Source of the DNA: Bryobacterales bacterium | GTDB taxonomy: Bacteria > Acidobacteriota > Terriglobia > Bryobacterales > UBA6623 | Length of the DNA stretch: 64,000 nt | NCBI GenBank assembly: GCA_965208945.1 | Contig: OZ242366.1 | Location: 2,195,827 to 2,259,826 of the forward strand | Direction of reading: 5' to 3' | Part shown: in pieces, positions 20,194 through 55,355 of the stretch | How positions within the stretch are numbered: the stretch's first letter is position 1 | How the letters are laid out: every line of letters begins with the position of its first letter | Notes under the pieces: model-generated | Database searches by the model: none | What the model was told of the DNA's origin: nothing | Seen by the model: the letters and a program-made list of their open reading frames with translations, nothing else | Position numbers and translations under genes: made by a program

Positions 20194-20198
20194 CCTGG

Positions 20199-22260: not shown

Positions 22261-22284
22261 GGAGGGAAGCGGGGTGTCCTTTAG

Positions 22285-27692: not shown

Positions 27693-27840
27693 CTAAGCGG
27701 CTGCGGGCTGGCGGCGCGGGCATCGCACTGCGCCGGGGAACATTCCGCGAGACGAGACCTCGCTCGACGTCAACACCCCCGCTGGTGCAGGCCTGCATCG
27801 TGCCCGTCCCAGCGCGGCATCGACAACGACTTCTGAGAGA

Positions 27841-31377: not shown

Positions 31378-31548
31378 CCCAAGGACCCTTGTGGCAGTCG
31401 CACCCGGAGCCGTCCGGTTCCACCGTGCTTGTGGGGCAGAACAGCGGGCTGTTTTGGAGTCCTTGGCCTCTGTACAGGCGTTGAAGCGTTGCGCTGAACC
31501 AACTTCCTGCCGAAGACCAGGCCGCCGGAACTTCGACTGCCGGTCTAG

Positions 31549-31749
31549 CCTGCATTTCTAACCACGTGGCGAGGCGAAGTGGGTGAGAGGGCCGTCAGGA
31601 CTAGGCGCAAGCCGGGCGGAGGAAAAAGGCGCGAGCCGCTTGGCGCGCGCAGGCGTACTTGAACCGTACGTTGAGCACGGCAAGCAAGCGCAACGAAGTC
31701 CTGGCGGTCGTATCGCGTGCTTCGACCGTTGGGTGGTGAGAAATACAGG
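31549..31749 (+). mobile_element. MITE copy I (long subfamily) with an unoccupied internal CTAG
   Basis: Flanks are CTAG and TCAG. Internal sequence gtcaggactaggcgcaag is the empty form of the site occupied in E1 and K. Confidence 0.9.
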
Positions 31750-35351: not shown

Positions 35352-36206
35352 ATGCACCGACGGAGTTTGATTGCCGGCATGGCCATCGCGGCGGCTGAGC
35401 GGCTGTCGGCGTTCTCGGCCGCGTCAGGCCTGGGTGTGCAGAAGTCGATTCTCATCTCGATGCTGCCCGGGGAACTGTCTTATCTCGATCGTTTCAAGCT
35501 GGCCGTCGATGTCGGTTTCAACCTGATGGAGGTCCGGTCGCTGCAAGACGACGCGGAGGCCGCCAGGATCAAGGATGCCGCCGATAAGGCCGGGCTGCGG
35601 ATTCACTCGGTGATGAACGGGATCCATTGGCGTTACCCGCTGTCGAGCCCGATTGCATCGGAGGTCGAGGCGAGCATGGCCGGGATGCGCCGTTCGCTGC
35701 GGCAAGCGAAACTCTACGGCGCGGGGGTGGTGCTCCTCGTGCCCGCCGTAGTGCGCGGCGACACGACCTACGAGCAGGCCTGGGAGCGTTCCAGCAAGCA
35801 GATCCGCATCCTCCTCCCGGAGGCCGAGAAACTGGGCATCACGATCGCGGTCGAAGAGGTGTGGAACAAGTTTCTTCTTACGGCGCGGGACTTCAACCAG
35901 TTCATCGACCAATTCGAAAGCCCCGTGGTGCGGGCCTACTTCGACGTCGGCAACATCGTTCACTACGGCGTGCCGCAGCATTGGATTCGGCAACTGGGCA
36001 AACGGATCGTGCGGGTTCACCTCAAGGATTACGTACGGCAGTCGCGGCAGTTCGTGAATCTCGGTGAGGGCGATGTCAACTGGCCGGCGGTCCGCGGCGC
36101 TCTCGCCGACATCGGTTATGCCGGGCCGGCCACGCTGGAGATCAAGGGCGGCGACCGTTCGTACCTTCAGGATGTGAGCGATCGCGTCGACCGCTTGCTT
36201 GGTTGA
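35352..36206 (+). CDS. Sugar phosphate isomerase/epimerase (xylose isomerase-like TIM barrel), Tat-like signal
   Basis: 284 aa. N-terminus MHRRSLIAGMAIAAA. Blocks IAVEEVWN and YFDVGN. Confidence 0.85.
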   Translation: MHRRSLIAGMAIAAAERLSAFSAASGLGVQKSILISMLPGELSYLDRFKLAVDVGFNLMEVRSLQDDAEAARIKDAADKAGLRIHSVMNGIHWRYPLSSPIASEVEASMAGMRRSLRQAKLYGAGVVLLVPAVVRGDTTYEQAWERSSKQIRILLPEAEKLGITIAVEEVWNKFLLTARDFNQFIDQFESPVVRAYFDVGNIVHYGVPQHWIRQLGKRIVRVHLKDYVRQSRQFVNLGEGDVNWPAVRGALADIGYAGPATLEIKGGDRSYLQDVSDRVDRLLG

Positions 36207-36225
36207 ACCCGTGGGACGGAAGCAT

Positions 36226-39200
36226 ATGATGTTCGTGCTCCTCGCTGTGTTCTCCCTGCTGTTGACCGGGCTCGCAACGGCTCAGGGACCGCAGGGCGAG
36301 GAGTTCTTTGAGAAGAAGATCCGCCCCGTCCTGGCGGCCCGCTGCTACCTGTGCCATGGAGCGGATGCGCCTCAGGTTCAGGGTGGGTTGCTGCTCGACT
36401 CCCGGCAGGGCGTGCTGACAGGCGGGAACTCCGGGCCGGCGGTCAAGCCCGGCGATCCGGACCGCAGCTTGCTGCTGCAGGCGCTGCGCTACGGCGGACG
36501 GTTGAAGATGCCGCCGGACGGTCCGCTCGGTCCCGAAGTAGTGCGGGACTTCGAAGCGTGGATTCGGATGGGTGCTCCCGACCCGCGGACCGGAGCCGCT
36601 GTCCAAACCGGCCTGCTGCCCGACGGCGCGCGCGAGCATTGGTCGTTCCAACCCCCGGAAATGCCGCCGCTTCCGTCCGCTGGCGAGCAGGATTGGGTAC
36701 GCAACCCGATCGATCGTTTCATTCTCGCCAAGCTGCGGGACAAGGGCATTGAGCCGTCGCCGGAAGCCGATAGACGGACGTTGATTCGACGGCTCAGCTA
36801 TGACCTGACGGGGCTGCCCCCGGCTTGGGAAGAGGTGGAGTCGTTTCTCGCCGATGAATCGCCCGACGCTTACGAAAAGGTGGTCGAGCGCCTGCTCGGA
36901 TCGCAGAGCTACGGTGAGCGCTGGGCGCGTCATTGGATGGACGTGTCGCGCTACTCGGACTCGTTCGACGGCTCGCGGCGCTTCGCCTTTGCGTACACCT
37001 ATCGTGACTGGCTGATTCGCGCTTTCAACGAAGACATGCCCTACGACGAGTTCGTGCGTAAGCAGATTGCTGCGGACCTGCTTCCCGGAGGCGACCGTCG
37101 GGATCTCGCGGCTCTTGGTTTCGTGACGCTCGGGCGCAGTGTGCCGAAGGGCCAGCACGACATGATCGATGACCGGATCGACGCAATTACGCGCGGCTTT
37201 CTGGGGCTGACGGTCACCTGCGCTCGTTGCCACGACCACAAGTTCGACCCCATCCTCACTCGCGAGTATTACGCGCTCTACGGTGTGATCAAGAACTCCC
37301 CTGAGCCGACCGAGTACCCGCTCGTCGCCAATGAGGACCCGCACGATCCGCTCACTCGGCAGTACCGCCGGGGGATGGAACGAAGGCTCAAGGCGATCGA
37401 CGATTTCATCACGAAGCGCCACGCCGAGTTGGTTGCGGAGTTCCGCGCGGCCGACTGGTTGGCGCGCTATCTGCTGGCAGCCGACAAGGCGTCGAAGTTC
37501 AGCAACACGCAGATCGAGCGGCTGTCTCGTGAGCGCGACTACAACTTGTTCGTGCTGAGACGCTGGCGGGACTACCTGAACCGTCTTCGCGAGACGAATG
37601 ATCCGGTCTTCGCGACTTGGAGGGCATACGCCAGGCTTGACGCCGAGTCGTTCGCGGAATCGGCCGCCAGGGTTGAGCCCGTCGGGAATGAGCACGTCCG
37701 TGCAAGCTTTGAGGCGAGGCCCCCGGCTTCGATGGTCGAAGTGGCCGCGCGCTACGGCAAGCTGCTGGCCGAGCGGGACCGGCCCGAGCCTTACGGCGAC
37801 CCCGGGAACGAAGCGTTGCGTCTCGTGTTGCGGGCCGAGGACGCGCCGACGAACGTCAAGCAGGAGGACTTCGTTGAGATTCGCGGTCCGGGAGGGGACG
37901 CCAACATCATTCGGGCTCTGACCCGAGCCGTGCGTGCATGGCAGGCGGAGTGCGCCTACCGGGGACTCGCGCCGCGGGCGATGGCGATCGAAGACGACGC
38001 TCGGCCCGAGCCGGCTTACGTTTTTGTGCGGGGGAATCACAACAACCCGGGCGCGGAGGCGCCGCGGCGCTTTCTGGCCGTGCTCTCCGAAGACCCGAAA
38101 CCGTTTGACGCCGGCAGCGGACGGCTGGCCGTGGCCGAGGCGATCTCTGCTCCGTCGAATCCTCTGACCGCGCGAGTCATCGTCAATCGGGTTTGGGCTT
38201 GGCGCTTCGGTAGGGGCCTGGTCGAGACGACGAGCGATTTCGGGACGCGCGGCGCGCCGCCAACGCATCCCGATTTGCTCGACGATCTGGCTCGCCGCTT
38301 CATGAACGGGGGCTGGTCGCTGAAGCGACTGCACCGCTGGATGGTGCTGTCAAGCACCTACCGGCAATCGAGCCGCGACCGCCCGGCCGCGCGTGAGAAG
38401 GATCCCGAAAACAGGTTGCTCTGGCGGATGCATCGGCGGCGATTGGACTTCGAAGCGTTGCGCGATTCGCTGCTGGCGGTGACGGGGCGCCTTGATCCGG
38501 AAGTAGGCGGATTGCCCTTCTCGCTCGAGGCGCAGCCGGCCGTTCCACGGCGGACCATCTACGCCTATCTCGAGCGCGGTCGGTTGCCGGGCGAGATGTA
38601 CACCTTCGATTTCGCGAAGCCCGAGGCGCACCAGCCGGAGCGCGTCCGGACGATCGTGCCGCAACAGGCGCTTTACTTGATGAACAGCCCCTTCGTGGCG
38701 GAGCAGGCCGTGCACTTGGCCGGACGGCCTGAGATTGACTCGCGGCCGACCGCGGAAGGGCGGGTCCGGTCACTGTATCGAATCGTCTATCAGCGCGAGC
38801 CCGGCGATTCGGAACTGAGGTTGGGGCTTGAGCTGGCGCGCTCTTCTGCCTCGGATACGGCTATACCTGCTGCACCCGGAGCGTGGAGTTACGGTTCCGG
38901 GTCTTTTGATGCCGCGAGCGAGCGGGTGAGGGGATTCGAGCCGTTCCGGTATTTCGAGGGGGGCCGCTGGCAACCGGCTTCGCTTCGGCCGCAGCCGCTA
39001 TTCGCGGGACTGTCGTTGTCGGCCCGGGGAGGAGCTCCGGGCGGCCGTTCCGGGCTTTTGGCGGTGCGCCGCTGGGAGGCGCCGCGGTCGGGGACGGCGA
39101 GCATCGCCGGCGCTTTCAAGCATTCCATGAACGAGCAAAGAGAATGGAGTGATGGAGTGCGGGTCTGGATTGTGCATAGCCGCCTTGGAGTTCTCGCCGA

Positions 39201-39459
39201 GGGCGTGGCTCGCAACGAGGAGTTCGAGCTCCGTGCGGAGAATATCGAGACTGGAGAAGGCGACACGATCGACTTTGTCGTCGGCGCAGGGGACGACATT
39301 GAGAGCGACGAGTTTGCCTGGGAGCCCGAGATTCGCATCGGTTCCGATACCTGGAACGCGGCGGCGGACTTCCGAGGCCCCGAGCCGAAGCAACTGGGCC
39401 GCTGGGCTCGTCTCGCTCAAGTGCTGCTGGCGGCGCACGAGTTCGCTTTTGTAGATTAG
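36226..39459 (+). CDS. PSCyt1/DUF1549/DUF1553 family secreted protein (second copy)
   Basis: Starts MMFVLLAVFSLLLTGLATAQG after ggacggaag. Carries CYLCHGA and VTCARCHDHKFDP. Paralog of 13-3123. Confidence 0.9.
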   Translation: MMFVLLAVFSLLLTGLATAQGPQGEEFFEKKIRPVLAARCYLCHGADAPQVQGGLLLDSRQGVLTGGNSGPAVKPGDPDRSLLLQALRYGGRLKMPPDGPLGPEVVRDFEAWIRMGAPDPRTGAAVQTGLLPDGAREHWSFQPPEMPPLPSAGEQDWVRNPIDRFILAKLRDKGIEPSPEADRRTLIRRLSYDLTGLPPAWEEVESFLADESPDAYEKVVERLLGSQSYGERWARHWMDVSRYSDSFDGSRRFAFAYTYRDWLIRAFNEDMPYDEFVRKQIAADLLPGGDRRDLAALGFVTLGRSVPKGQHDMIDDRIDAITRGFLGLTVTCARCHDHKFDPILTREYYALYGVIKNSPEPTEYPLVANEDPHDPLTRQYRRGMERRLKAIDDFITKRHAELVAEFRAADWLARYLLAADKASKFSNTQIERLSRERDYNLFVLRRWRDYLNRLRETNDPVFATWRAYARLDAESFAESAARVEPVGNEHVRASFEARPPASMVEVAARYGKLLAERDRPEPYGDPGNEALRLVLRAEDAPTNVKQEDFVEIRGPGGDANIIRALTRAVRAWQAECAYRGLAPRAMAIEDDARPEPAYVFVRGNHNNPGAEAPRRFLAVLSEDPKPFDAGSGRLAVAEAISAPSNPLTARVIVNRVWAWRFGRGLVETTSDFGTRGAPPTHPDLLDDLARRFMNGGWSLKRLHRWMVLSSTYRQSSRDRPAAREKDPENRLLWRMHRRRLDFEALRDSLLAVTGRLDPEVGGLPFSLEAQPAVPRRTIYAYLERGRLPGEMYTFDFAKPEAHQPERVRTIVPQQALYLMNSPFVAEQAVHLAGRPEIDSRPTAEGRVRSLYRIVYQREPGDSELRLGLELARSSASDTAIPAAPGAWSYGSGSFDAASERVRGFEPFRYFEGGRWQPASLRPQPLFAGLSLSARGGAPGGRSGLLAVRRWEAPRSGTASIAGAFKHSMNEQREWSDGVRVWIVHSRLGVLAEGVARNEEFELRAENIETGEGDTIDFVVGAGDDIESDEFAWEPEIRIGSDTWNAAADFRGPEPKQLGRWARLAQVLLAAHEFAFVD

Positions 39460-39467: not shown

Positions 39468-40862
39468 ATGTTCGATTCGAGCCGCCGTCGGTTCCTCAAG
39501 CATTGCGGGATGGGTCTGCCCGCGCTGGCCGCGGGCGCGCTCCTGAGCGAGCAGGCGCAAGCGGGGCCGCTCGATCCGAAACAGCCGCATTTCCCCCCCA
39601 GGGCGAAGCGGGTGATCCATTTGTTCATGAACGGCGGGCCGTCGCAGGTCGATACGTTCGACCCCAAGCCGGCGCTCGCCAGGTATGCCGGCAAGGAACT
39701 GCCCTTCAAGTTCAAGACCGAGCGCCGGACGGGCGCCGCGTTTCCTTCGCCTTTCAAGTTCAAGCAGCACGGCGAGAGCGGACTTCCGGTCAGCGAGATC
39801 TATCCCGCGTTGAGCCGGCATGTCGACAAGATGTGCGTCATCCGGTCAATGCACAGCCCGCTTCCGAACCACGAGCCGTCTCTGATGTTGATGAACTGCG
39901 GCGACATCAGGCAAGTGCGGCCGAGTTTCGGCTCGTGGGTCACCTACGGCCTCGGCTCGGAGAACCGGAACTTGCCGGGCTTCGTCGTGTTGTGTCCGGG
40001 CGGATTTCCGGTGCAAGGCGCGCACAACTGGCGGTCCGCGTTCCTTCCCGGAGCCTTCCAGGGTACGCACATCGACACCAAAAAGACGGATATCGACGAG
40101 TTGATCGCTCATATCCGCAATCCTTCCATCCCTCTCGAAGAGCAGCGCCGGCAGCTCGATCTGCTGGCGAAGCTGAACCGGCGCTATATGGAGGATCGCG
40201 TCGCCGATGCACGCCTCGAATCACGTCTGGAGAGTTTCGAGCTTGCCTATCGTATGCAGATGGAGGCTGCGGACGTTTTCGATGTGAGCAAAGAGCCTCG
40301 GCACATCCTGGAGGCTTACGGAGACACGCTGCACGGACGGCAGATTCTCATGGGCCGCCGTCTGCTGGAGCGCGGTGTACGCTTTGTTCAGATTTGGCAT
40401 GGCGCGGGCCAACCGTGGGATTCCCACAACGACATCGAGAAGAATCACCGCAAGCTGGCGCATGAGAACGATAAGCCCATTGCTGCCCTTCTCACTGATC
40501 TGCAGCAACGCGGCATGCTCGAAGAGACTCTTGTGCTCTGGGGAGGCGAGTTCGGACGGACCCCGACCGTGGAGTTGGCGGAGAAGGGAGCCAACAGCGG
40601 GATGGTGAATGGTCGAGATCACAATCCTCATGGATTCACGGTTTGGGTCGCTGGAGGCGGCGTCAAGGGCGGCATGGCCTACGGCGCGACAGACGAGTTC
40701 GGTTTCGCCGCCGAGCAGAACAAGGTCCATGTGCACGACTTGCACGCGACCCTGCTCCATCTGCTAGGCTTCGATCACGAGAAGTTCACGTACCGCTATG
40801 CCGGTCGTGACTTCCGGCTTACCGACGTGCACGGCCGCGTCGTGCGCGGCATTCTTGCTTAG
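39468..40862 (+). CDS. DUF1501 domain protein (second copy), Tat-type signal
   Basis: 464 aa. N-terminus SRRRFLKHCGMGLPALAAGALL. Blocks GGEFGRTP and RDHNPHGF. Confidence 0.9.
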   Translation: MFDSSRRRFLKHCGMGLPALAAGALLSEQAQAGPLDPKQPHFPPRAKRVIHLFMNGGPSQVDTFDPKPALARYAGKELPFKFKTERRTGAAFPSPFKFKQHGESGLPVSEIYPALSRHVDKMCVIRSMHSPLPNHEPSLMLMNCGDIRQVRPSFGSWVTYGLGSENRNLPGFVVLCPGGFPVQGAHNWRSAFLPGAFQGTHIDTKKTDIDELIAHIRNPSIPLEEQRRQLDLLAKLNRRYMEDRVADARLESRLESFELAYRMQMEAADVFDVSKEPRHILEAYGDTLHGRQILMGRRLLERGVRFVQIWHGAGQPWDSHNDIEKNHRKLAHENDKPIAALLTDLQQRGMLEETLVLWGGEFGRTPTVELAEKGANSGMVNGRDHNPHGFTVWVAGGGVKGGMAYGATDEFGFAAEQNKVHVHDLHATLLHLLGFDHEKFTYRYAGRDFRLTDVHGRVVRGILA

Positions 40863-43648: not shown

Positions 43649-44704
43649 ATGCACCGAATAGGCTTATCCGCGGTTGTGATACTGCTGGTCGCGTTAGCAG
43701 CCGGCCTAACTGCTTCCGAGCGCTATGTTGCTGTGGACAACGTCTGCGCCTGGCCGAACCTGACGGTCTTGCCGAATGGGGACTTGACGGCCGCGATCTT
43801 CAACCACCCAAGTCACGGTCTTGCCGAGGGCGACGTGGAGGTATGGGCGAGTTCGGATGGAGGCAAGCTCTGGGAGCTTCGCGGCGCCGCTACCACGCAC
43901 GACACGGGAACGAACCGCATGAACGTCGCGGCCGGCCTGGCTCACAACGGGGATCTGGTCGTGCTCGCATCGGGCTGGGGTGGGGCTGGTTTCCGCAGGA
44001 AGATCCTGCCGGTGATGGTGAATCGTTCTTCTGACGGCGGCCGGACCTGGCAGCGCTCGTTCGACGTCGAGCTCCCCGGCGGGCTTTCTTACCTCATTCC
44101 CTTCGGTGACATCGTCTTGATGGAGAGCGGCATGTTGGCGGCGCCCTTCTATCAGGAGGACCGCGACTTGTCGTCCGGCAAGCGCCCGCAGGTAAGCAAG
44201 GGCAGCGCCTACCTCCTTTTCAGCAAGGACGACGGGCGGACCTGGGGAGACGGCGTTGTTCTCGCACGCGGCGATTACAACGAGACGTCCGTCCTGAGGA
44301 TTCGCCCCGATCGCTGGTTGGCGGCGGTGCGGACCTATCGAGACGGGCACCTCGAGCTTTTTGAATCGAGCAATGAAGGGAAGACCTGGAAGAATGCCGG
44401 GCCCCTCACGCTGCCCAGCCATCATCCGGCCCACCTGCTTCAACTCGATGACGGCCGCATCCTGCTGACCTACGGCATCCGCGAGAAAGGCCACCAGGGA
44501 GTGGGGATGCGCATCAGCGAGGACGAAGGGAAGACCTGGAAAGCTCCGACGCGAGTCGTCAACCTTGAAGGCACCACCGACGGCGGCTATCCTTCCACGG
44601 TCCAGCTTCCGGACGGCAGCCTTCTCACGGCCTACTACAGCAACGGCATTCCCCAACACCGCCGCTACCACATGGGAGTGGTCCGCTGGACGTTGTCTGA
44701 CTGA
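43649..44704 (+). CDS. BNR/Asp-box repeat protein (sialidase-like glycoside hydrolase fold)
   Basis: Five Asp-box-like motifs: SSDGGKLW, SSDGGRTW, SKDDGRTW, SNEGKTW, SEDEGKTW. Confidence 0.8.
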   Translation: MHRIGLSAVVILLVALAAGLTASERYVAVDNVCAWPNLTVLPNGDLTAAIFNHPSHGLAEGDVEVWASSDGGKLWELRGAATTHDTGTNRMNVAAGLAHNGDLVVLASGWGGAGFRRKILPVMVNRSSDGGRTWQRSFDVELPGGLSYLIPFGDIVLMESGMLAAPFYQEDRDLSSGKRPQVSKGSAYLLFSKDDGRTWGDGVVLARGDYNETSVLRIRPDRWLAAVRTYRDGHLELFESSNEGKTWKNAGPLTLPSHHPAHLLQLDDGRILLTYGIREKGHQGVGMRISEDEGKTWKAPTRVVNLEGTTDGGYPSTVQLPDGSLLTAYYSNGIPQHRRYHMGVVRWTLSD

Positions 44705-44803
44705 CCTGAAACATCCTCCTGATCAAGGGGCAGCGGACACCCATCCGGATGTTTCCGGATTGAATGATCCACAGACGAGCGGAGGAAAAACTGGCATAGC
44801 AGG
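44705..44803. mobile_element. X-family small element X2 (99 bp)
   Basis: Begins cctgaaacatcctcctgatcaag immediately after the TGA stop of the BNR gene. Ends ggcatagcagg. Separated from MITE M by cgag. Confidence 0.65.
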
Positions 44804-44807
44804 CGAG

Positions 44808-44984
44808 CCTGCATGTCTCACCACGCGGCTAGGTGAAGTGCGTGAGAGGGTCGTTAGGACGAGGCGAGCGCCGCTTGGCGCGCACAGGCGTACTTGAACA
44901 GTACGTCGAGCACGGCGAGCAAGCACAACAAAGTGATGGCGGTCGTATCGCGTGCTTCGGCCGTCGGAAGCTGAGAAATGCAGG
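44808..44984 (+). mobile_element. MITE copy M (short subfamily)
   Basis: The right flank CTAA (44985-44988) contains the stop codon (TAG on the minus strand) of the aldo/keto reductase gene. Confidence 0.88.
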
Positions 44985-45950
44985 CTAACTGCCCTGATAC
45001 TCGTGTCTGCGCCGGCCTTCGAGCGCCGTGCGCGCGTCGCGCTTCCAGTCTTCCAGGTCGGGGCCGGCAAGCTCTGCGGCTCTCCCGCGCAGCTCGGCCA
45101 TCACATCCCTGTTGTACTGCGAGAACTGCTGCGCGATGCGGACATCGTCTTCGATCTGACCGATCGTCGTGCATCCGACCGCGAGGCAATGGATCGGAAG
45201 GCTCAGCACGTAGTTGATGCATTGCCCGACCCCGAATGACTGGAGCAGCTTCGAGTTGGCCGTGCTCTTCATGCCCTGGATGCCCAGGTTCTGCTTTTGG
45301 GCTTCCGGCAGCACCTTCTGTTCGAAGCTCAAATACGACGGATCGGCTGGATTGAGCGGCATCAGGATCGTGTCGAAGTCCTTGTAAAGCCGCAGCATCT
45401 CGAGATGGGCTTCCGGATCGTGATGCCCGGTAAAACCGATGTAGCGGCATTTGCCCGCTTTCTTTGCCGCCTCGAAAGCTTCGATCGCACCGCCGGGAGC
45501 GAAGATGGCTTTGAGGTCCTCATCTGACTTGACGGAGTGAATCTGCCACAGATCGAGATAGTCGGTCTTGAGTCTCTTCAGCGACTTGTGTAGTTCTTCC
45601 TCGGCTTCCTTGCGGGTTCGCTTCACGCTCTTCGTGGTCAGGAAGACCTCCTTGCGGACATCCTCGAGCGCTTCGCCGTAGACCACCTCGGAGCGGCCGT
45701 TCCAGTAGCTGTGTGCATTGTCGAAGTAGTTGAGCCCGAGTTCATAGGAGCGGCGCGTGATGGCCTTGGCCTGATCGAACGTGCAAAGCGGAAAACGCCC
45801 ACCGGCTTGTCCGACGAGCGTGAGTTTCTCGCCGGTCTTGCCGAACGTCCTTTTCGGTACGTCACCGGCTTTCAGGCGGCTCGCCCGGGTACTGCCCGCC
45901 GCGATGCTCAACCCCGCAACAGCACTGCCGAAGAAGCTGCGTCGTTTCAT
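44985..45950 (-). CDS. Aldo/keto reductase, Tat-type signal
   Basis: Starts MKRRSFFGSAVAGLSIAAG. AKR blocks (YFDNAHSY, GFTGHH). Confidence 0.88.
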   Translation of the reverse strand: MKRRSFFGSAVAGLSIAAGSTRASRLKAGDVPKRTFGKTGEKLTLVGQAGGRFPLCTFDQAKAITRRSYELGLNYFDNAHSYWNGRSEVVYGEALEDVRKEVFLTTKSVKRTRKEAEEELHKSLKRLKTDYLDLWQIHSVKSDEDLKAIFAPGGAIEAFEAAKKAGKCRYIGFTGHHDPEAHLEMLRLYKDFDTILMPLNPADPSYLSFEQKVLPEAQKQNLGIQGMKSTANSKLLQSFGVGQCINYVLSLPIHCLAVGCTTIGQIEDDVRIAQQFSQYNRDVMAELRGRAAELAGPDLEDWKRDARTALEGRRRHEYQGS

Positions 45951-46199
45951 GGTTTCCTCCCGGAGTCGACAAATAGCCGCCCCAATCATAACACCTGTCT
46001 CGGTCGTGTTGTGCCGTCAAGCACGGTGTTTCGGTCAGGAACGAGATCCACCGGGACCAAGCCCTGCACAACTGGCGCCGTGGTCTTGTTCGTAGCGGGC
46101 GTGCTGCCGCCGGAAGCAGTGTAGCCCTTCCACGGGATGCCGGCCGTACCCTGAACGGAACGTTTGCGCCGTCGTCGTTGTAGAGAACGGCAGCAGAGC

Positions 46200-46540
46200 A
46201 TGAAGCTGGAAGAGCTGCCGGCCAACGCCGCGGTGCGCGGCATCCTGTCCGACGGCCTTTTCACGGTGGTCAGCGTGCAGTGGTTCGGCTCCGAAGCGCT
46301 TGAACGGACCTGACCGGAAGGTCGCCAAAGAGCTTCTGTGCCGTACACGACGAACCCCGGCTCGAGATGGTCAAGGTCGGCCGGCCGACCATGGAGCATC
46401 GACGGAGACGGCGCGTTGTTCCTCTTGGTCTCCGAGGCGCAATGGGTCCGCCTTGCACATCTGTTCGACCCGATGATCGCCGTGCACACCTCGGTCGTCG
46501 ATCCGTTGCCACATCGGATCACTGCGGTTATACTCTTTCG
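46200..46540 (+). pseudogene. 5' remnant of a large helicase-like gene with an in-frame TGA
   Basis: Reads MKLEELPANAAVRGILSDGLFTVVSVQWFGSEALERT*PEGR...[49 protein letters not shown] and then loses similarity. From memory this resembles the N-terminus of SNF2/DEAD-type helicase-related proteins. No database check was possible. Confidence 0.35.
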
Positions 46541-46576
46541 ATCCACTGGGACCGATTGCTCCGGGGAAGTGCTGTC

Positions 46577-48673
46577 ATGAAGTGGATCAAGAAGGGGTGT
46601 CTCATCACTTGCCCGGCTGTTTTGGTCGTGTCATTCGTCTGTGCGGTCGCGCCCGCGCTGCGCGCCCACGAAGGCGCCATCACCGTCGTCTCGGGCGCCA
46701 GCTTCACCGCTGAGCAACCGGTGGCTCCGAACTCGATCGCCGCCGTGTTCGGGGGCGAGTTCGCGGAGCAAACGACGGTCTCTGGCGAGAGCGAATTGCC
46801 GGAAGAACTCGACTCGGTCTCGGTTGTGATCGAGGACAGCGCCCAAGTAGAACACCGCGCGAAAGTCTTCGCCGTCGCCAAGGCCCGGATCGACATCCTC
46901 ATTCCCGACCTGCCCGATGGCACGGCGCACATGCAGGTGGTGCGCGGCGGCGCGTCCGTAGCCGACGGGGAATTCGAGATCCGGTCCGTGAGTCCGGGAT
47001 TGTTTTCCGCCGCGAGTACCGGTTCGGGCCTCGCGGCTGCGGTTGCCGTGCGCGTGAATGCCGATGGGACCCAAAGTTTTGAACCCGTAGCGGTCTTCAA
47101 TACCGAGCGGGGGATGTGGGAACCGATCCCGCTCAACACCGCTGCCGGCTCAATCTACCTGAGCTTGTTCGGCACGGGTATCCGCAACGGCTCGGATCTC
47201 ACGGCTGCGATCGACGGAATTCCGATTGAAGTACGGTTTTACGGCGTAAATCCGGCGTTTCCGGGCCTCGACCAAGTCAATATCGGCCCCCTGCCGCCCG
47301 AGTTGAGCGGTCGGTCGGTCGTCGATCTCGTTCTGACCGTGGACGGGATCGAGGCTAACAGAGTGCAGTTCGGGTTCTCCGGCGGCGCCGGCGAGGCGGT
47401 CACCTTCAACAATCAGATCATCCGCCTGTTCCAGGCGCACTGTCAGGTCTGCCATCACCCGGGCGAGGTCGCTCCGTTCTCACTGATGGACTACGAATCC
47501 GCCAAGCCCCGGGCGCGGGGGATCAAGTGGGCGACGGCCGCACGCTATATGCCTCCTTGGAAACCGGTCCCGGGATACGGCGAATTCATCGGAGAACGCC
47601 TCCTGGACGAAACCGAGATCGACTTGATCGCGCGCTGGGTGGATGCGGGTGTCCCGGAGGGCGATCCGGCCGACCTGCCGGAGCCGCTGGTCTTCAATGA
47701 GGAATGGACTCTCGGCGATCCGGATCTGGTCCTGGAGCTTCCTGAGTACACGCCCGATCCGAACTTGGAAGACGACTACCGCTGCTTCAGCGTTCCCGTT
47801 CCGACGGAAACGGTCAAAAGCATCACGGAAGTCGAGGTGCGGCCCGGTAACCGCGGCATCGTCCATCATCTAATCTTGTTCGGGGATCCGACCGGCCAGT
47901 CGGCGGCTCTCGAAGCCGCGGCCGGCGGCGCGGCGCCGGGATACGAGTGCTTCGGTGATCCGGGGTTCGAATTTGATGGGATCGAGGGGGTGGAATCGTA
48001 TATACAGGGCGGCTGGGTGCCCGGTTACCGCCCCCAGGTCCTGCCCGAGGGTTCTGGGTACTATCTGCGGCCGGGCGCGCGCATCGCGATCCAGATCCAC
48101 TACCACGCCGACGGGAAGCAGGAAAGCGACCGCACCCGCATCGGCCTGCACTTCTCGGAAGAGCCGACCGAGGAGAACGTCCTGGTACTGCCGGTTTTGA
48201 ACCGCGAGTTCGAAATCCCGCCCGGGGCGGAAAACTACGAGGTGACCGCCGAGTTGGCCCTTGAGAACCCGCGGTACCTGGTTCTCGATACGGTTCTGCG
48301 CAGCTTGGGCAAGCGCCTCTTTCCCGTGGAAGTCATCTCCGTGCTGCCTCACATGCACCTGCTCGGACGAGAGATCCGCATGGACAAGGTATCCGCCGCC
48401 GGCGAGGAGACGCCGATGATCTATATCGACGACTGGGACTTCCACTGGCAGGACTGGTACACCTATGTCGAGCCCGTCCTTCTCGAATCCACCGACGTTC
48501 TCAAAGTGCGGGCTTGGTATGACAACTCCGCGTCCAACCCGCGGAATCCTAATAATCCGCCGCGGGCAGTCGGATGGGGCAACGGCACCAACGACGAAAT
48601 GTGCATCGTTTTCTTCCTTGTGAAAATTCCGGATCTTTGCGGTTTGCCGCTGGGTCTTTGCGGAGGGCTGTGA
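46577..48673 (+). CDS. Secreted fusion: TIGR03437-like Ig-type domain + CxxCH heme motif domain + PHM/DBH-like type-2 copper monooxygenase
   Basis: Starts MKWIKKG (signal peptide). Carries CQVCHHPGE. Copper ligand pattern is VHHL...IHYH...PHMHLLG...NDEMC, matching CuH (H,H,H) and CuM (H,H,M) of peptidylglycine/dopamine monooxygenases. Confidence 0.8.
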
Positions 48674-48814
48674 CCGGCTCGTTCCGATGCCGCTGTCCGG
48701 TCGAGAGTGCGGGGAATCGCCGGTTTTCGCGGCAGTGGCGGTGCTCCCGCGCGGATTTCCGAAAACGGCGCCGTCAAGTCAAGACTTGGTAAAAAAGAGG
48801 GCATTGACTCAGAT

Positions 48815-50512
48815 ATGCATGTGAACGCTGTTTTCGAGACCCCCTGTTTTTGGCGAAAATCGGCCGGTCCAGTCGGCAGCATCGCCGCTTTCGCCTGCCT
48901 TATGGCGGCGCTGGGCTGTAGCGGGAAAGAGGCTGTTTCATCGGCGGGCGCCGGCCTGATCCGCGCCGGCAGCATCGCCGCCCACACCCGGTTTCTCTCG
49001 AGCGACGCCCTCGAAGGACGCGGCATCGGAGGACGCGCCGAGGTGCTCGCCACCGAGTACATCGCGGCGCAGTTTGCCTTGGCCGGGGCTGCTCCGGCGG
49101 GAGATGACGGGACGTACTTCCAGGTGGTTCCGCTTGTCGGTGTCCAGACACAGCCCGATGCCATGCTGAGCTGGTCTGCGGGAGCGGGCGCCAGGCGCTT
49201 GCGCTACCTCGACGATTTCGTCGCTGTGAACCACCGCCAGCAACCGCTCGCCGAGGTGGACGCTGAAGCCGTCTATGTCGGTCACGGCATCGTAGCCCCC
49301 GAGTTCGAGTGGGATGACTACAAGGGGGTCGATGTCAAGGGCAAGATCGTCGTCCTCTTCACGAACGAGCCGGCATCCGACGATCCGGCTTTCTTCGGCG
49401 GACCGGCGCTCACCTACTACGGCCGCTGGACCTTCAAGTACGAAGAGGCGCTGCGCCAGGGCGCCGCCGGGTGCCTGATCATCCACACGACACCCACCGC
49501 CGGCTACCCCTGGCAGGTCGTCCGCAACTCTTGGAGCGGCCGCGAACCCTTCGTGGAGCTCGGCCCGGACGAAGAGGCCCTGAGCGTGGCCGGGTGGATC
49601 CATGCCGAGGCGGCCGCTTCGATGCTCGCCGCAACCGGCAAGAGCCTCGACGAGTTGCTGGCCATGTCGGAATCGCGCGCCTTCCAGCCGCTGCCGCTGT
49701 CGGTCCGCATCCGCACCCGGATTCCCAGTTCAGTCACTCCCATCCGCACGCGCAACGTCGTCGCGATGATCCAAGGCGGCAACGCTCAAAAACGGGACGA
49801 AGCCGTTCTCTATACGGCCCACTGGGACCACCTCGGCGTCGGCATCCCGGTAGACGGCGACAACATCTACAACGGCGCGGTCGACAACGCAACGGGCGTC
49901 TCGCTGCTCCTCGAATTGGCGCGTGCTTTCGGCGAGTCCGACGCTCGGCCGCAGCGCTCGATCCTTTTCGCGGCCGTCGGCGCCGAGGAGGGCGGCCTGC
50001 GCGGCTCGGAATACTACGCTCAGCATCCTTTCATCCCGGCCGGCCGGACGGCGGTGAACATCAACTTCGATGGCTTGGCCCCGCTGGGACGCACGCGCGA
50101 TATTACCCTTCCCGGTTTCGAGCGGACGACCCTGCGGCCTGTCGTCGAAGCCCTCGCCGAGGAATCGCGGCTGTCGATCCGTCCCGAAGCTCACCCCGAA
50201 CAGGGCTATTACTATCGTTCGGATCACTTCAGCCTGGCGAAGGTTGGCGTGCCGGCTTTCTCGGTGAAGCTGGGCGTCGACTACGTCGATCGACCGGAAG
50301 GCTGGGGCGTCGAGGCGCAGGAGGATTACACCGCGAACCGCTACCATCAGCCCTCCGATGAGTTCGATCCGGCATGGGATTTCTCGGGCCTCGAACAACT
50401 CGCGCGGTTCGGCTTCGAACTCGGCCTTAGCGCCGCCAACGCCCCGGACTTGCCCACCTGGAATGAAGGGGACGAGTTCCTGCCGGCGCGGCTCCAGTCA
50501 TGGGAACGCTGA
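48815..50512 (+). CDS. M28 family aminopeptidase with PA domain, lipoprotein
   Basis: Lipobox LMAALGCSG. Blocks HWDHLG, AVDNATG, EEGGLRGS. Confidence 0.85.
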   Translation: MHVNAVFETPCFWRKSAGPVGSIAAFACLMAALGCSGKEAVSSAGAGLIRAGSIAAHTRFLSSDALEGRGIGGRAEVLATEYIAAQFALAGAAPAGDDGTYFQVVPLVGVQTQPDAMLSWSAGAGARRLRYLDDFVAVNHRQQPLAEVDAEAVYVGHGIVAPEFEWDDYKGVDVKGKIVVLFTNEPASDDPAFFGGPALTYYGRWTFKYEEALRQGAAGCLIIHTTPTAGYPWQVVRNSWSGREPFVELGPDEEALSVAGWIHAEAAASMLAATGKSLDELLAMSESRAFQPLPLSVRIRTRIPSSVTPIRTRNVVAMIQGGNAQKRDEAVLYTAHWDHLGVGIPVDGDNIYNGAVDNATGVSLLLELARAFGESDARPQRSILFAAVGAEEGGLRGSEYYAQHPFIPAGRTAVNINFDGLAPLGRTRDITLPGFERTTLRPVVEALAEESRLSIRPEAHPEQGYYYRSDHFSLAKVGVPAFSVKLGVDYVDRPEGWGVEAQEDYTANRYHQPSDEFDPAWDFSGLEQLARFGFELGLSAANAPDLPTWNEGDEFLPARLQSWER

Positions 50513-50533
50513 GAAGTTTATAATTGAGACGCC

Positions 50534-51016
50534 TTGTCATACCTCGAGTGGCTTGAGAACTCACTGACGGACAAGCTCGAAGAGCAGCCGGTCGGAGAGC
50601 CTGTCGCCCTTCGCGCCTACCTGGAGCTGAGCGACGATCACGGGCACCTGGTTCCGACCGCCGGGGCGATGGCGGCTGTCGCAGGCGCTTGGTTCGGTGC
50701 GGGATTGCCCAAGGTCTATGCTCTCGGCGGAGCCGACCAGGGATACGTTTCGGTCACCGCGACGTATCCTGGCGGACAGACCGCTCTGATCGTCGCCGAG
50801 TCCTTGAGCGCAGCCGCCGGTGAGCGGCCCTCCGTGCGTCTCTTGCTGATCGGCAACCATGGCACGATGGAGTTCGCTGATTCGCCGGGTGCGGATTTCC
50901 GCACGGTCGATCGAACGCCGCCTGCCGGCGCGAGCAGCGAGGCTCTGAGCCGGGCGATAGCTGAGTCGCTCCGGTCCAGCGCCCCCGTGGAAGGGAGCAC
51001 GCACAGCCGTGGCTAG
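50534..51016 (+). CDS. Hypothetical protein (resembles a Gfo/Idh/MocA C-terminal-type domain)
   Basis: 160-aa ORF with a TTG start. Its stop TAG lies inside the left CTAG flank of MITE N. Start and function are uncertain. Confidence 0.45.
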   Translation: MSYLEWLENSLTDKLEEQPVGEPVALRAYLELSDDHGHLVPTAGAMAAVAGAWFGAGLPKVYALGGADQGYVSVTATYPGGQTALIVAESLSAAAGERPSVRLLLIGNHGTMEFADSPGADFRTVDRTPPAGASSEALSRAIAESLRSSAPVEGSTHSRG

Positions 51017-51192
51017 CCTGCATATCTCCCCGCGTGGGGACGTGAAGTGCGTGAGAGGGCCGTCAGGACGAGGCGCGCGCCGCTTGGCGCGCGCAGGCGT
51101 ACTTGATCGTACATCGAGTACGGCAAGCAAGCGCAACAAAGTTATGGCGGCCGTATCGCGTGCTTCGGGTGTCAGGCGGTGAGATATGCAGG
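51017..51192 (+). mobile_element. MITE copy N (short subfamily, variant centre gtacttgatcgtacatcgag)
   Basis: Flanks are CTAG and CTAA. The ATG in the right TIR (51186) opens the downstream ORF. Confidence 0.88.
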
Positions 51193-52340
51193 CTAAACCT
51201 TCGTTCGGCGTTCTGCTCGTAACGGGCGGGATGACCCACCAGGAGAACTACGGAGAGGGATTCCTCGCCGACCCGCGCGCAAGAGTCGTCGGCCTTACCG
51301 ATGAACCCGATGTCGACGAACGCCGCGACCGCCTGAACCGCGGATTGGCCGATCAGTTCGGCATCCCCTTCCTGCCGGATATCCGCGAGGCGCTCGCGCG
51401 GTCCGATGTGCACCTCGTCTCCGTCTGCTCGGAGTTCGAGCGGCGCACCCGCGTCTCTCAAATCTGTGCGGAAGCCGGCAAGCATCTCTACGTCGACAAG
51501 CCCATGGTGACGAAGATGGCGGAGGCCGACAAACTCGTGGCGACAGCCGGGCGGCGTGGTTTGCGCGGGCAGATGTTCACTCAGGTCGGCGCGCCGTACG
51601 CGAGGCGGCTGAAAGGAATCGTCGATTCCGGTGCTTTGGGCGAGATCAAGTCGATCCAGTGTGACCTCATGTTCGCGAAGGGTTTCACCGGCGGCGCTCC
51701 GCTTGGCGTGCCGCGGCGCGAGCACGATCCGCCCAGGCGGTTCACGTTCCCGGACGCCAAGCGTGAGATCTGGACGACCGCGGTCTATTCGCTCACCTTG
51801 ATCCGCTGGCTCCTCGGCGGACCCCGCTTTCGTAGCGTCTACGCCACGAGCGCCAACTACTTTTTCGAGGAGCACTACAAACGCGATGTCGAGGACTTCG
51901 GCACGCTTGCTCTCACGCTCGACAACGGCGTCACGGCGTCGCTGATCGCCGGCCGGATCGGTTGGCACAGTCACCGCAGTTCCGGCCCGAACTTCACGCG
52001 CATCATCGGTAGCAAGCGCAGCTTCCTTCTTGACGCGCACAGCCCGCGCTTCGAAATCTCGTCCGACCGAAAGTGGGCGCCGCCGGCGAAGGACCCCATC
52101 GATCCCATGGGCTTCTGGTCGAGCACCATGGAGCGTGGGAACGCTCAACCCAAGCCCTTTTGGCATGAGCCGCCGACCGCGCCCGGGCAATCGGATCAGG
52201 CTCTCTTCCTCGATTGCCTCGAACAGGACAAAGAGCCGGAAGTCACGCTGGACGATGCCGCGCAGGCATCCGAGGCCATGCTGGCCGCCTACCGGTCCGC
52301 TGCGACAGGGCAGGTGGTGGCGTTGCCTCTGCCGCGCTAG
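51186..52340 (+). CDS. Gfo/Idh/MocA family oxidoreductase
   Basis: 384 aa. Rossmann beta1 plus Gly-rich loop FGVLLVTGG begins at codon 7. The only in-frame start after the upstream TGA (51179-51181) is the ATG inside the MITE N terminus. The stop TAG lies in the CTAG flank of MITE K. Confidence 0.8.
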   Translation: MQAKPSFGVLLVTGGMTHQENYGEGFLADPRARVVGLTDEPDVDERRDRLNRGLADQFGIPFLPDIREALARSDVHLVSVCSEFERRTRVSQICAEAGKHLYVDKPMVTKMAEADKLVATAGRRGLRGQMFTQVGAPYARRLKGIVDSGALGEIKSIQCDLMFAKGFTGGAPLGVPRREHDPPRRFTFPDAKREIWTTAVYSLTLIRWLLGGPRFRSVYATSANYFFEEHYKRDVEDFGTLALTLDNGVTASLIAGRIGWHSHRSSGPNFTRIIGSKRSFLLDAHSPRFEISSDRKWAPPAKDPIDPMGFWSSTMERGNAQPKPFWHEPPTAPGQSDQALFLDCLEQDKEPEVTLDDAAQASEAMLAAYRSAATGQVVALPLPR

Positions 52341-52396
52341 CCTGCATTTTTCACGACGTGGCGAGGCGAAGTGGGTGAGAGGGCCGTCAGGACTAG

Positions 52397-54120
52397 CCCG
52401 GAAATCTCACCAGGGGGTAGGAAAAGGGCTGCCTGGTGTGGCATAAAACATTTATGTCCAAAACGTTAGCGCCACAAGCCGAAAGCAGCCCTCTGTCAAC
52501 AGAGTGTATCCAATCCAGCTTCACCTTTGCCAAGCATTTTCGACGCCAGGTGAGCGCTCGCTTTGACGGCGGGGTGATCAGTTCCGACGGCGGCGCGCTG
52601 CTGTTACGGGAGGTGGACCAGCGCATCAACCTGCTGCCGCGCTTGGCGGGCTGCTTCGAGGATGGCCGCGATTCGCGGCGCATCGAACACCTGGTGGGGG
52701 AGTTGGTCTCGCAGCGGGTCTACGGGCTGGCGCTGGGATACGAAGACCTCAACGATCACGACGAGTTGCGGCGCGATCCGGTGCTGGCGCTGCTGGCGGG
52801 CAAGAGCGACGTGTCCGGGCAGCGCCGCCGCCGCGAGCGTGACCGCGGCCAGCCGCTGGCGGGCAAGAGCACGTTGCAGCGACTGGAACGAACGACCGAT
52901 GGCGTGGATCGTTACCAGAAGGTCCGCTGCGTCAGCGAAGCGATCGACCGCCTGTTGGTGGACGTGTTCGTGGAAGCGCACTCGCAGGAGCCGGCCGAGG
53001 TCCTACTCGATATCGACGCCACCGACACGCCTTTGCACGGGCAGCAGGAGGGACGTTTCTTTCACGGCTACTACAGACACTACTGCTACTTGCCGCTGTA
53101 CATCTTCAGCGGCGAGCACGTGTTGTGCGCGCGGCAGCGGGTATCGAATCAAGACGCGGCGGCGGGCAGCGTAGCGGAGTTGGAGAGGATCGTGGCGCAG
53201 CTCCGGGCCGCGTGGCCGGAGGTGAAGATCATCCTGCGTGGGGACTCGGGGTTTTGTCGGGACGAGTTGCTGAGTTGGTGCGAAGAGAACCGGGTGGACT
53301 ATGTGGTGGGGCTGGCGCGCAACGAGCGGCTGCAGTCGTTGATCGAGGAGGCGCTCGAAGAGGCGGCCAGCAGGCAGCAGCAAACGGGCCGGCCGGCGCG
53401 GGCCTACAGCGAGTTCGAGTATCGGACGCTTGAGAGTTGGAGCCGGGAGCGGCGGGTGGTGGCGAAAGCCGAACAGTTGGTGGGCAAGCAGAACCCGCGC
53501 TACGTGGTGACGTCGCTGGACGGGGAGCGCTGGCCGCCGCGGCGGTTGTATGAACAACTCTACTGCGGGCGCGGGGAGGCGGAGAATCGCATCAAGGAGC
53601 AGTTGAGTCTGTTCGCGGATCGCATGAGTACGGAGACGCTACGGGCCAATCAGTTGCGGCTGCATCTGTCGTCGCTGGCGTATGTGTTGCTGGTGGGACT
53701 GCGGCGGCTGGGGCTGAAGGGCACGCAGTGGGCGCGGGCGCAGACCGAGACGATCCGGCGGGGGCTGTTGAAGATCGGCGCGCTGGTGAAGGTGAGCGTG
53801 CGGCGGGTGCATCTGTCGCTGGCCAGCGGCTACCCCGATGAGGAGGCGTTCGCGGCGGTGTATCGGGCGCTGCGTCCGCCGGGACCAGCAACTGTTTGAC
53901 AACAGTGAGCGAACCGAAAAACGGGGCCGTCGGCAGCCTCAGGGGCGAAGTGTTTCTCAAATCGGCCACAACCCGAAAAACGAACATTCGCGAGCCGCTA
54001 AGGGCAGCGCAAAACGCCCCGTAGAGGCCTTCACTCACCCTCGCCGCGAAGAATACCGTGTTTCAGACCCTATTTCGGCCTCCCTCAACCCATCGCGAAG
54101 CCGCTGGTGAGAAATGCAGG
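52397..54120 (+). mobile_element. IS1380-family insertion sequence (1724 bp), probable autonomous partner of the MITE
   Basis: Bounded by CTAG direct repeats (52393-52396 and 54121-54124). IRL is cccggaaatctcaccagg and IRR is gctggtgagaaatgcagg. IRR matches the MITE TIR at 16 of 17 positions. Confidence 0.85.
52436..53899 (+). CDS. IS1380 family DDE transposase
   Basis: 487 aa. N-terminal FDGGVISSDGGALLLREVD and the blocks LDIDATDTPLHGQQEGRFFHGYY and RGDSGFCR are typical of this family, identified from memory. Confidence 0.85.
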   Translation: MWHKTFMSKTLAPQAESSPLSTECIQSSFTFAKHFRRQVSARFDGGVISSDGGALLLREVDQRINLLPRLAGCFEDGRDSRRIEHLVGELVSQRVYGLALGYEDLNDHDELRRDPVLALLAGKSDVSGQRRRRERDRGQPLAGKSTLQRLERTTDGVDRYQKVRCVSEAIDRLLVDVFVEAHSQEPAEVLLDIDATDTPLHGQQEGRFFHGYYRHYCYLPLYIFSGEHVLCARQRVSNQDAAAGSVAELERIVAQLRAAWPEVKIILRGDSGFCRDELLSWCEENRVDYVVGLARNERLQSLIEEALEEAASRQQQTGRPARAYSEFEYRTLESWSRERRVVAKAEQLVGKQNPRYVVTSLDGERWPPRRLYEQLYCGRGEAENRIKEQLSLFADRMSTETLRANQLRLHLSSLAYVLLVGLRRLGLKGTQWARAQTETIRRGLLKIGALVKVSVRRVHLSLASGYPDEEAFAAVYRALRPPGPATV

Positions 54121-54281
54121 CTAGGCGCAAGCCGGGCGAAGGAAAAAGGCGCGAGCCGCTTGGCGCGCGCAGGCGTACTTATGGGATGGTTCGCTCCCAC
54201 TTCCGCTGCGTCGTCGAGTTCGGCCATGCTGGTAGCAACGGCCGTCCCCGGCCGCAGTTCACGAACCGAGAGGAAACCATC

Positions 54282-55355
54282 ATGGCAACGACCCAGCGAT
54301 CATCCCGCAAGAGCGTATGGAAGGAGGTCGTCACGATCGGCCTCGATCTAGCAAAACACAACGTCGACTTGGTCGGCTTGGACGCAACCGGCCGGGTGCT
54401 CACCCGTCGCCGCTACTCGAAGGGCAAGCTGCTGGAGGTGACCGCCCAGATGCAGCCCTGCCGTATCGGCATGGAAGCCTGCTGCGGCGCCCATCACCTG
54501 GGCCGCCAACTGCTGGCCCAGGGGCACGACGTGAAGCTGATGCCGCCCAAATATGTGAAGCCCTTTGTGAAGCGCGACAAGAACGACTCGACGGACGCCG
54601 AGGCCTGCGCGGAAGCCTGTCTGCGGCCGAGCATGCGCTTCGTGGCGGTCAAGAGCGAGCAACAACTGTCGATGCAGTCGCTGCACCGCTATCGCTCGCG
54701 GCTGGTGGGCAACTCGACGCAGTTGATCAACCAGGCGCGCGCCTTTCTGCTGGAACGCGGCATCACCCTTCCACAGGGCAAGCGTTGGTTTGTGGTCCGT
54801 CTGCCGGAGATCCTCGAGGACGCCGATAACGGCCTGTCCGACGAAATGCGGGCGCTGCTGGCGGGCATGTTTGCCGAATGGCAAGTGCTGGCAGAGAAGA
54901 TTCAGCAAGTCAACACCTATCTGCTGAGGAAAGCGCAGGCGAGCGAGGCCTGCCGGCGGCTCAGAGAGATCCCCGGCATCGGCGTGCAGACAGCGACGGC
55001 CTTGGTGGCGACGATCGGCAACGCCGAGGCCTTCGAGAAGGGGCGCGACGTCGCTGCTTGGTTGGGTCTGGTGCCGAGAGAGTACTCCAGCGGAGGCAAG
55101 CAGCGCTTGGGAGGCATCAGCAAGCGCGGCAACCGCTACGTCCGGACGCTGCTGGTGCACTGTGCCCGCTCGAGCCTCGACGTGCTCGCGAAGCGCAGCG
55201 ACCAACTCGGCCAGTGGCTGCGGCGGATGCTCCTGAACAAAGATCGGCGGGTCGTGATCGTGGCGCTGGCGGCACGGCTGGCGCGCATCGCATGGGCCTT
55301 GCTGAGCAGCGGCCAGCGCTTCTCTCAACAGCGGCAACCAGCCCCGGCGGGTTAA
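54282..55355 (+). CDS. IS110 family DEDD transposase/recombinase
   Basis: 357 aa. Blocks IGLDLAK, GMEAC, KNDSTDAEA, and C-terminal GISKRGNRYVR. Confidence 0.9.
   Translation: MATTQRSSRKSVWKEVVTIGLDLAKHNVDLVGLDATGRVLTRRRYSKGKLLEVTAQMQPCRIGMEACCGAHHLGRQLLAQGHDVKLMPPKYVKPFVKRDKNDSTDAEACAEACLRPSMRFVAVKSEQQLSMQSLHRYRSRLVGNSTQLINQARAFLLERGITLPQGKRWFVVRLPEILEDADNGLSDEMRALLAGMFAEWQVLAEKIQQVNTYLLRKAQASEACRRLREIPGIGVQTATALVATIGNAEAFEKGRDVAAWLGLVPREYSSGGKQRLGGISKRGNRYVRTLLVHCARSSLDVLAKRSDQLGQWLRRMLLNKDRRVVIVALAARLARIAWALLSSGQRFSQQRQPAPAG

Follow-up and report, generated by a model that had tools for sequence, protein, structure and literature searches.

Peptidylglycine alpha-hydroxylating monooxygenase (PHM), dopamine beta-hydroxylase (DBH), and tyramine beta-monooxygenase (TBM) are textbook copper enzymes, to which animals owe their amidated peptides and noradrenaline. 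All of the characterized members in the literature that we searched are eukaryotic and use ascorbate, and this literature contained no work on PHM-like or cytochrome c-fused enzymes from bacteria. For PHM, the roles of the ligands at its two copper sites, CuH and CuM, and the 11-Å separation of the coppers have been described, and how electrons cross this gap is still debated (PMC9064607). Here, we report on a gene of a Bryobacterales bacterium (assembly GCA_965208945.1) that lies in a 64,000-nucleotide (nt) stretch of contig OZ242366.1; this whole stretch is referred to as the window, and all positions are given in its numbering. The gene encodes a predicted exported protein of 698 amino acids (aa) in which a c-type heme domain directly precedes a PHM/DBH-type copper core. 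According to the reading that we favor, and to which we give somewhat better than an even chance, the product is a Sec-exported, non-coupled two-copper monooxygenase of the PHM/DBH fold that is reduced via its own heme, is independent of ascorbate, and acts on a substrate other than peptidyl-glycine.

PHM, the catalytic core of PAM (PDB 1PHM/1OPM/3MLL), shares with the window protein the two-domain beta-sandwich fold and, one to one, the CuH (His3) and CuM (His2Met) ligands, at a sequence identity of ~18-20%. In contrast to PHM, the window protein has a fused upstream cytochrome c and an N-terminal tandem immunoglobulin (Ig)-like domain, lacks a PAL partner, and comes from a bacterial host; moreover, ascorbate, which PHM uses, is not expected to serve it. 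DBH and TBM (PDB 4ZEL) have the same catalytic fold and ligand set, and the match to them is weaker than that to PHM. DBH is also a multidomain protein with an N-terminal accessory domain (DOMON) ahead of its catalytic core, but the accessory domains are unrelated, consisting of a c-type heme domain and an Ig-like tandem in the window protein and of DOMON and a dimerization domain in DBH. Among bacteria, redoxin-cytochrome c-PHM proteins of Planctomycetota contain the same conserved module and ligands; these are likewise exported, uncharacterized, and encoded by stand-alone genes, and they differ at the N terminus, where a thioredoxin-fold domain stands in place of the TIGR03437 domain. Class I cytochrome c is fused to a periplasmic redox enzyme, with intramolecular electron transfer, also in cytochrome c-fused copper nitrite reductases and quinohemoprotein dehydrogenases, whose catalytic folds, a cupredoxin or a pyrroloquinoline quinone (PQQ) propeller, are unrelated and in which electrons flow in another direction and for another purpose. 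Neither the fold nor the chemistry is new. The bacterial variant, with its fused heme, presumed independence of ascorbate, and different substrate pocket, can be seen in databases; it was found neither in the literature searched nor among solved structures.

Copper core and heme domain

A profile built from 53 aligned homologues (the family profile) was searched against the PDB and matched rat PHM across both domains (E 1.8e-14) and human DBH (E 2.2e-7). A phmmer search of the PDB with the single sequence returned nothing relevant, and the family profile was needed. The C-terminal copper domain was recognized in the protein itself by PF03712 (Cu2_monoox_C; aa 584-680, 31.8 bits against a cutoff of 23, E 1.2e-7), and PF01082, which describes the N-terminal copper domain, matched 52 of the 53 family members at an E value of ≤0.1 (best, 2.2e-8). 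An AlphaFold2 (AF2) model of aa 270-698 was obtained with high confidence (pLDDT 90.4, pTM 0.88). When this model was compared with the PDB by Foldseek, PHM ranked first (E 6e-17, TM score 0.69 on the target) and DBH next (E 4e-15), followed by unspecific jelly-roll matches. The structure prediction thus returned the two-domain PHM/DBH fold, on which the six copper ligands were assigned by profile alignment.

By this alignment, the protein contains both a predicted CuH ligand set of three histidines and a predicted CuM ligand set of His-x-His plus Met (Table 1). All six positions are invariant in the 53 homologues and were kept in 143-147 of 148 divergent representatives (described below). The second coordination sphere is also conserved in the family, with Q506, Q625, and Y401 aligning with PHM Q170, Q272, and Y79, as is a cysteine pair (C403 and C458) that aligns with the C81-C126 disulfide of PHM. 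The original prediction, made from the DNA letters, had named five motifs for the heme and the coppers, and all of them were found exactly where it had placed them. In IHYH, from which one histidine had been listed as a copper ligand, it is the first histidine, H508, that aligns with PHM H172 of CuH; H510 is less conserved.

The heme motif is embedded in a region with the features of a class I cytochrome c, all of which are present: CxxCH, a distal methionine, and a helix N-terminal to the motif. PF13442 (Cytochrome_CBB3) matched 52 of the 53 family members (best E, 1.7e-6) and PF14376 (Haem_bd) matched 32 of the 53. When a profile of the heme region (aa 272-392) was searched against the PDB, only marginal matches were obtained, none with an E value better than 0.032; c-type cytochromes made up 18 of the 22, including cytochrome c6, CcoP, PccH, and the heme domain of hydrazine synthase. 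The alignment with cytochrome c6 spans from the helix before CxxCH through the MP motif to the C-terminal helix, and Met325 aligns with the MP(g/a)f methionine of cytochrome c6 and Cytochrome_CBB3. In the AF2 model, helices were predicted at aa 277-287, 306-321, and 345-356. C289, C292, H293, and M325 are invariant in all 53 homologues; among the 148 representatives, CxxCH was kept in 143-144, the remainder being truncated sequences, and Met325 in 146. Conservation of CxxCH, Met325, and the copper ligands across the family shows that these motifs did not arise by chance.

The protein begins with a Sec-type signal peptide, which was read by eye, and the LRAHEG junction at its end is kept in the long-form homologues to which it was compared. 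The signal peptide is evident by inspection; it predicts a Sec-exported protein with a periplasmic or cell-surface location and would give access to periplasmic heme attachment. The possibility that CxxCH lies in a non-heme context was examined, and the cytochrome matches together with the signal peptide place it, at the sequence level, in a genuine cytochrome c context. The domain order that had been proposed for the protein, from signal peptide through a TIGR03437 Ig-like domain and a c-type heme domain to a complete PHM/DBH ligand set, is thus supported by NCBIfam, profile alignment, Foldseek, and Pfam.

Family and genomic context of the cytochrome c-PHM module

The family profile was searched against 1.84 billion representative sequences, and 28,384 matches were found at an E value of ≤1e-3, 16,869 at ≤1e-10, and 6,408 at ≤1e-30, each match being a cluster at 50% identity. 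In the best 150 of the 28,384, the cytochrome c and PHM module was matched throughout, save for a few sequences that were N-terminally truncated or partial. Ligands were counted in the 148 best representatives, which share ≤50% identity with each other. About 60 of these 148 are minimal and consist of a signal peptide and the module only, while 62 (~42%) carry an N-terminal AhpC-TSA/redoxin (ResA/TlpA-like) domain in place of the Ig-like domain. Other domains added in relatives are TPR repeats, TIG, PD40, FGE-sulfatase, a G8/CEMIP beta-helix, and EF-hand, and relatives in which the module is fused to redoxin or other domains include P0122, P0136, P0137, P0151, P0177, and P0218. The redoxin form is annotated as "redoxin family protein" in Isosphaeraceae (Planctomycetota), and the family goes by the names "ascorbate-dependent monooxygenase," "mono/diheme cytochrome c family protein," and "peroxiredoxin" in its sources. 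The module was seen here in Acidobacteriota and Planctomycetota. These data establish the window gene as an ordinary member of a very large family, with a fusion that is not peculiar to it, and the interest of the finding therefore lies in the family and not in the locus.

The original prediction had described the bacterial members as essentially uncharacterized. This description agrees with the literature searched, with the lack of a solved bacterial homologue among the Foldseek matches to the PDB, and with the lack of a curated NCBIfam model for the cytochrome c-PHM module.

Genomic contexts were compared at seven loci from a genome scan and on eight further contigs encoding family members. 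Directly downstream of the window gene lies a gene for an M28 peptidase, which starts 33-140 nt further on in the same orientation; no terminator-like site separates the two. This gene and an aldo-keto reductase (AKR) gene upstream were syntenic only in L001 and L002, which are loci of metagenome-assembled genomes (MAGs) with 95-96% identity, and a BNR sialidase-like gene upstream was matched in L001 alone. The M28 gene was absent beside orthologues of 57-78% identity and beside more distant family members; these orthologues, the short forms, and the redoxin forms were each found amid unrelated genes. No recurring neighbor, reductase, or partner gene was detected in the contexts examined, and any inference from an operon, including the link to the M28 peptidase, was therefore dropped. 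We consider the gene a stand-alone unit and do not consider the M28 peptidase its functional partner. The lack of a conserved partner gene is as expected for a self-sufficient enzyme.

Electron source and substrate

In the mechanism that we propose, the protein would be exported by Sec and would then receive its heme by Ccm-type covalent attachment. The His/Met-ligated heme c would take single electrons from periplasmic respiratory carriers and pass them to CuH (H430, H431, and H508) in the directly following domain, and CuM (H592, H594, and M675) would bind O2 and hydroxylate a C-H bond of the substrate, as occurs in PHM. As the donor to CuH, the heme would stand in for ascorbate, a compound that is generally absent from bacteria. 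That the fused heme replaces the external reductant, as had been suggested beforehand, is plausible but unproven. It is supported by the near-universal fusion and its conserved ligands, by the fixed order in which heme comes immediately before CuH, by export, by the lack of a conserved partner gene, and by the high pTM of the multidomain model, which suggests that the heme domain is packed in a fixed position on the core.

Several observations weigh against this reading. The protein's own matches to PF13442 (E 0.0096; 16.7 bits, with a cutoff of 27) and to PF01082 (15.3 bits, with a cutoff of 30) fall below threshold, so that the strong evidence is found at the level of the family only. The AF2 model is uncertain at aa 293-300, beside the empty heme site, although low confidence is expected here because the model was built without heme. 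Finally, relatives commonly carry a redoxin fusion, which may indicate that the chemistry involves thiols or peroxide instead of hydroxylation.

The last of these points underlies the alternative that fares best, in which the protein serves in redox stress or as a periplasmic cytochrome c:O2 (or H2O2) oxidoreductase, with electrons from the heme reducing O2 or peroxide at the coppers and no organic substrate involved. The redoxin fusions and the "peroxiredoxin" label are in keeping with such a role, as is the finding that genes of a substrate pathway are not conserved nearby. However, the His2Met CuM site and the equivalents of Q170, Q272, and Y79 are hallmarks of tightly coupled hydroxylation in PHM (PMC9064607), and the window protein itself has no redoxin domain. 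A redoxin could equally serve maturation by reducing the cysteines of CxxCH, as ResA and CcmG do; the fusion may thus reflect self-maturation of the CxxCH site or the role of a two-electron donor. We therefore regard an oxidoreductase of this kind as unlikely.

It is slightly less likely again that the copper monooxygenase is active and its heme is structural, sensory, or a relic of another electron route, with CuH being reduced by an external small molecule or a partner protein. In its favor, the confidence of the AF2 model is lowest around the heme motif, and the protein's own match to the cytochrome Pfam family is below threshold. Against this, conservation of CxxCH and its Met in the 148 divergent representatives is roughly on a par with that of the copper ligands, and the order of the domains is fixed. 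Moreover, bacteria in general do not synthesize ascorbate, and no partner gene is conserved.

With regard to the substrate, the residues equivalent to R240, N316, and Y318 of PHM are L590, I677, and F679. The family as a whole has mostly hydrophobic residues at the three positions, and arginine is not a common residue where PHM has R240. From the PHM-substrate structure, we take Y318 and N316 to anchor the carboxylate or backbone of peptidyl-glycine. R240 forms a salt bridge to the peptidyl-glycine carboxylate in PHM (PMC9064607). Since the carboxylate-anchoring residues are replaced by hydrophobic ones, the substrate would not be a glycine-extended peptide, and a non-carboxylate group that is hydrophobic or uncharged is more likely. 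No PAL lyase domain was found in the protein or its neighbors in a Pfam scan of 34.4-61.3 kb of the window, and in recent work unrelated Fe enzymes were credited with C-terminal amidation in bacteria (PMC12912966).

The least likely of the alternatives, and a very improbable one, is that the protein is a genuine peptidylglycine alpha-hydroxylating (amidating) enzyme of bacteria, working on peptides together with the secreted M28 aminopeptidase encoded next to it: among solved structures, PHM is the nearest relative, the M28 gene follows closely with no terminator-like site between, and the TPR, PD40, and Ig-like accessory domains of relatives are typical protein- or peptide-binding modules, but R240, N316, and Y318 are all replaced, the adjacency is seen only in the MAGs of 95-96% identity, and the neighbors include no PAL-like lyase. 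For the same reasons, namely, an adjacency confined to two MAGs and the replacement of the residues that hold the glycine carboxylate, the earlier suggestion that the M28 neighbor hints at peptide substrates was abandoned.

The reading of a heme-reduced hydroxylase may extend to the family as a whole. We tentatively propose, giving it a little less than an even chance, that the cytochrome c-PHM module represents a large class of binuclear copper monooxygenases of the non-coupled type, which would work without ascorbate, be heme-wired to periplasmic electron transport, and provide a new bacterial extracytoplasmic C-H hydroxylation. If so, these proteins would be the first characterized prokaryotic members of the PHM/DBH group and would offer a natural system for electron transfer from heme to CuH to CuM. 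A one-electron donor that is spectroscopically visible and fused to the CuH domain would make this system convenient for addressing the question of transfer between the coppers. The 6,408 clusters that were matched at an E value of ≤1e-30 would then imply that an extracytoplasmic oxidation with no assigned substrate is common in soil, marine, and symbiont bacteria.

Gene boundaries, N-terminal domain, and surroundings

The plus-strand open reading frame (ORF) ending at 48673 has two possible starts, 46367 and 46577. The ATG at 46577 (MKWIKK...) encodes the same Met at which homologues of 697-699 aa begin, and in the related loci L001, L002, and L004 the frame upstream of it contains stop codons. 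The start at 46577 is further favored because a promoter-like site falls inside the longer alternative ORF. The ORF from the ATG at 46367 was rejected on these grounds. A lipoprotein N terminus was also considered and was rejected on inspection, since no proper lipobox precedes C8, C12, or C22. The GC content of the window is ~63%, and its nearest relatives, with 95-96% protein identity, are MAGs of Bryobacterales (Acidobacteriota). No paralogues of the gene were found within the 64-kb window.

The N-terminal region matched TIGR03437 (Solibacter uncharacterized C-terminal domain) at aa 37-264 with 97.8 bits against a cutoff of 29.05 (E 7.8e-28; NCBIfam); despite its name, the domain sits at the N terminus of this protein. 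The AF2 model of the region (pLDDT 92.3) contains two all-beta domains, for which Foldseek returned generic Ig-tandem matches alone (Fab light chains, plexin, and titin) and no functional clue. A domain search within the hit set recovered TIGR03437 from 72 of the 120 closest hits, all long forms, and from only 4 of the 148 diverse representatives, which marks it as a lineage-specific accessory that may act as a targeting or binding module.

TABLE 1 Features of the monooxygenase gene and of the surrounding window
Feature	Position (nt)	Strand	Basis or remark
Whole gene, 698 aa, predicted exported TIGR03437/cytochrome c/PHM-fold copper monooxygenase	46577..48673	+	ORF list; homologues of 697-699 aa
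Promoter-like site, TTGCCA-17 nt-TATACT, 43 nt upstream of ATG	46506..46534	+	Consensus match only (10/12)
Predicted Sec-type signal peptide, aa 1-30 (MKWIKK, hydrophobic core, ALRA/HEG junction)	46577..46666	+	Read by eye from sequence
TIGR03437 (Soli_cterm) domain, aa 37-264, two tandem Ig-like beta-sandwiches	46685..47368	+	NCBIfam, AF2, Foldseek
Class-I-like c-type cytochrome domain, aa ~272-385	47390..47731	+	PF13442, PF14376, PDB profile, AF2
CQVCHHPGE, aa 289-297	47441-47467		Named motif
CxxCH heme-attachment motif, C289, C292, H293	47441..47455	+	Family conservation
Met325 in MPPW motif, probable distal heme ligand	47549..47551	+	Family conservation, alignment
PHM N-terminal (CuH) beta-sandwich domain, aa ~395-511	47759..48109	+	Profile alignment, PF01082, Foldseek
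VHHLILF, aa 429-435	47861-47881		Named motif
H430/H431	47864-47869	+	Aligned with PHM H107/H108 (CuH ligands)
IHYH, aa 507-510	48095-48106		Named motif
H508	48098-48100	+	Aligned with PHM H172 (CuH ligand)
PHM C-terminal (CuM) domain, aa ~584-680	48326..48616	+	PF03712, profile alignment
PHMHLLG, aa 591-597	48347-48367		Named motif
H592/H594	48350-48358	+	Aligned with PHM H242/H244 (CuM ligands)
NDEMC, aa 672-676	48590-48604		Named motif
M675	48599-48601	+	Aligned with PHM M314 (CuM ligand)
M28 peptidase gene, listed GTG start, likelier ATG 48815	48707..50512	+	PF04389, E 1e-42
~187-nt repeat, two copies bracketing the AKR/monooxygenase/M28/hypothetical block	44802-44988; 51011-51196
~187-nt repeat, further near-full copies	4799-4980(-); 11796-11982; 20198-20376; 22283-22488; 23340-23520
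~187-nt repeat, further near-full copies	27238-27422; 27514-27696; 31547-31749
Partial third repeat copy near the block	52335-52430
Transposase gene, just downstream of the block	52436-53899	+	DDE_Tnp_1_4, E 7e-147
IS110 family transposase gene, likewise just downstream of the block	54114-55355	+	DEDD_Tnp_IS110 + Transposase_20
PSCyt1/PSCyt2/PSD1 heme-motif protein paired with DUF1501 protein	36199-39459; 39468-40862	+ / +
Second such pair, probable	13-3123; 3185-4654	+ / +	Large ORF with the same two CxxCH motifs (CLVCH, CARCH)

In the M28 gene, a hydrophobic stretch and a lipobox-like AALGC motif come after the ATG at 48815, which suggests a lipoprotein M28 aminopeptidase, and a weak match to a PA domain was found. 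The listed GTG start at 48707 probably lies too far upstream.

The 64 kb also contain at least 10 near-full copies, and many fragments, of a ~187-nt repeat that resembles a miniature inverted-repeat transposable element (MITE) and has the terminal inverted repeats GCCTGCAT...ATGCAGGC. The predicted hairpin of this repeat is very stable (-89 to -117 kcal/mol), and no Rfam match was found in 44000-53000. Both of the copies that flank the block containing the monooxygenase gene are missing at the same sites in L001 and L002, where the empty site reads ...GTGGCTAGCC...; since the copies are missing from MAGs of 95-96% identity, the element is polymorphic and was recently mobile. The pairing of a PSCyt1/PSCyt2/PSD1 protein with a DUF1501 protein, which is listed for the window in Table 1, was also seen near the family member in locus L010.

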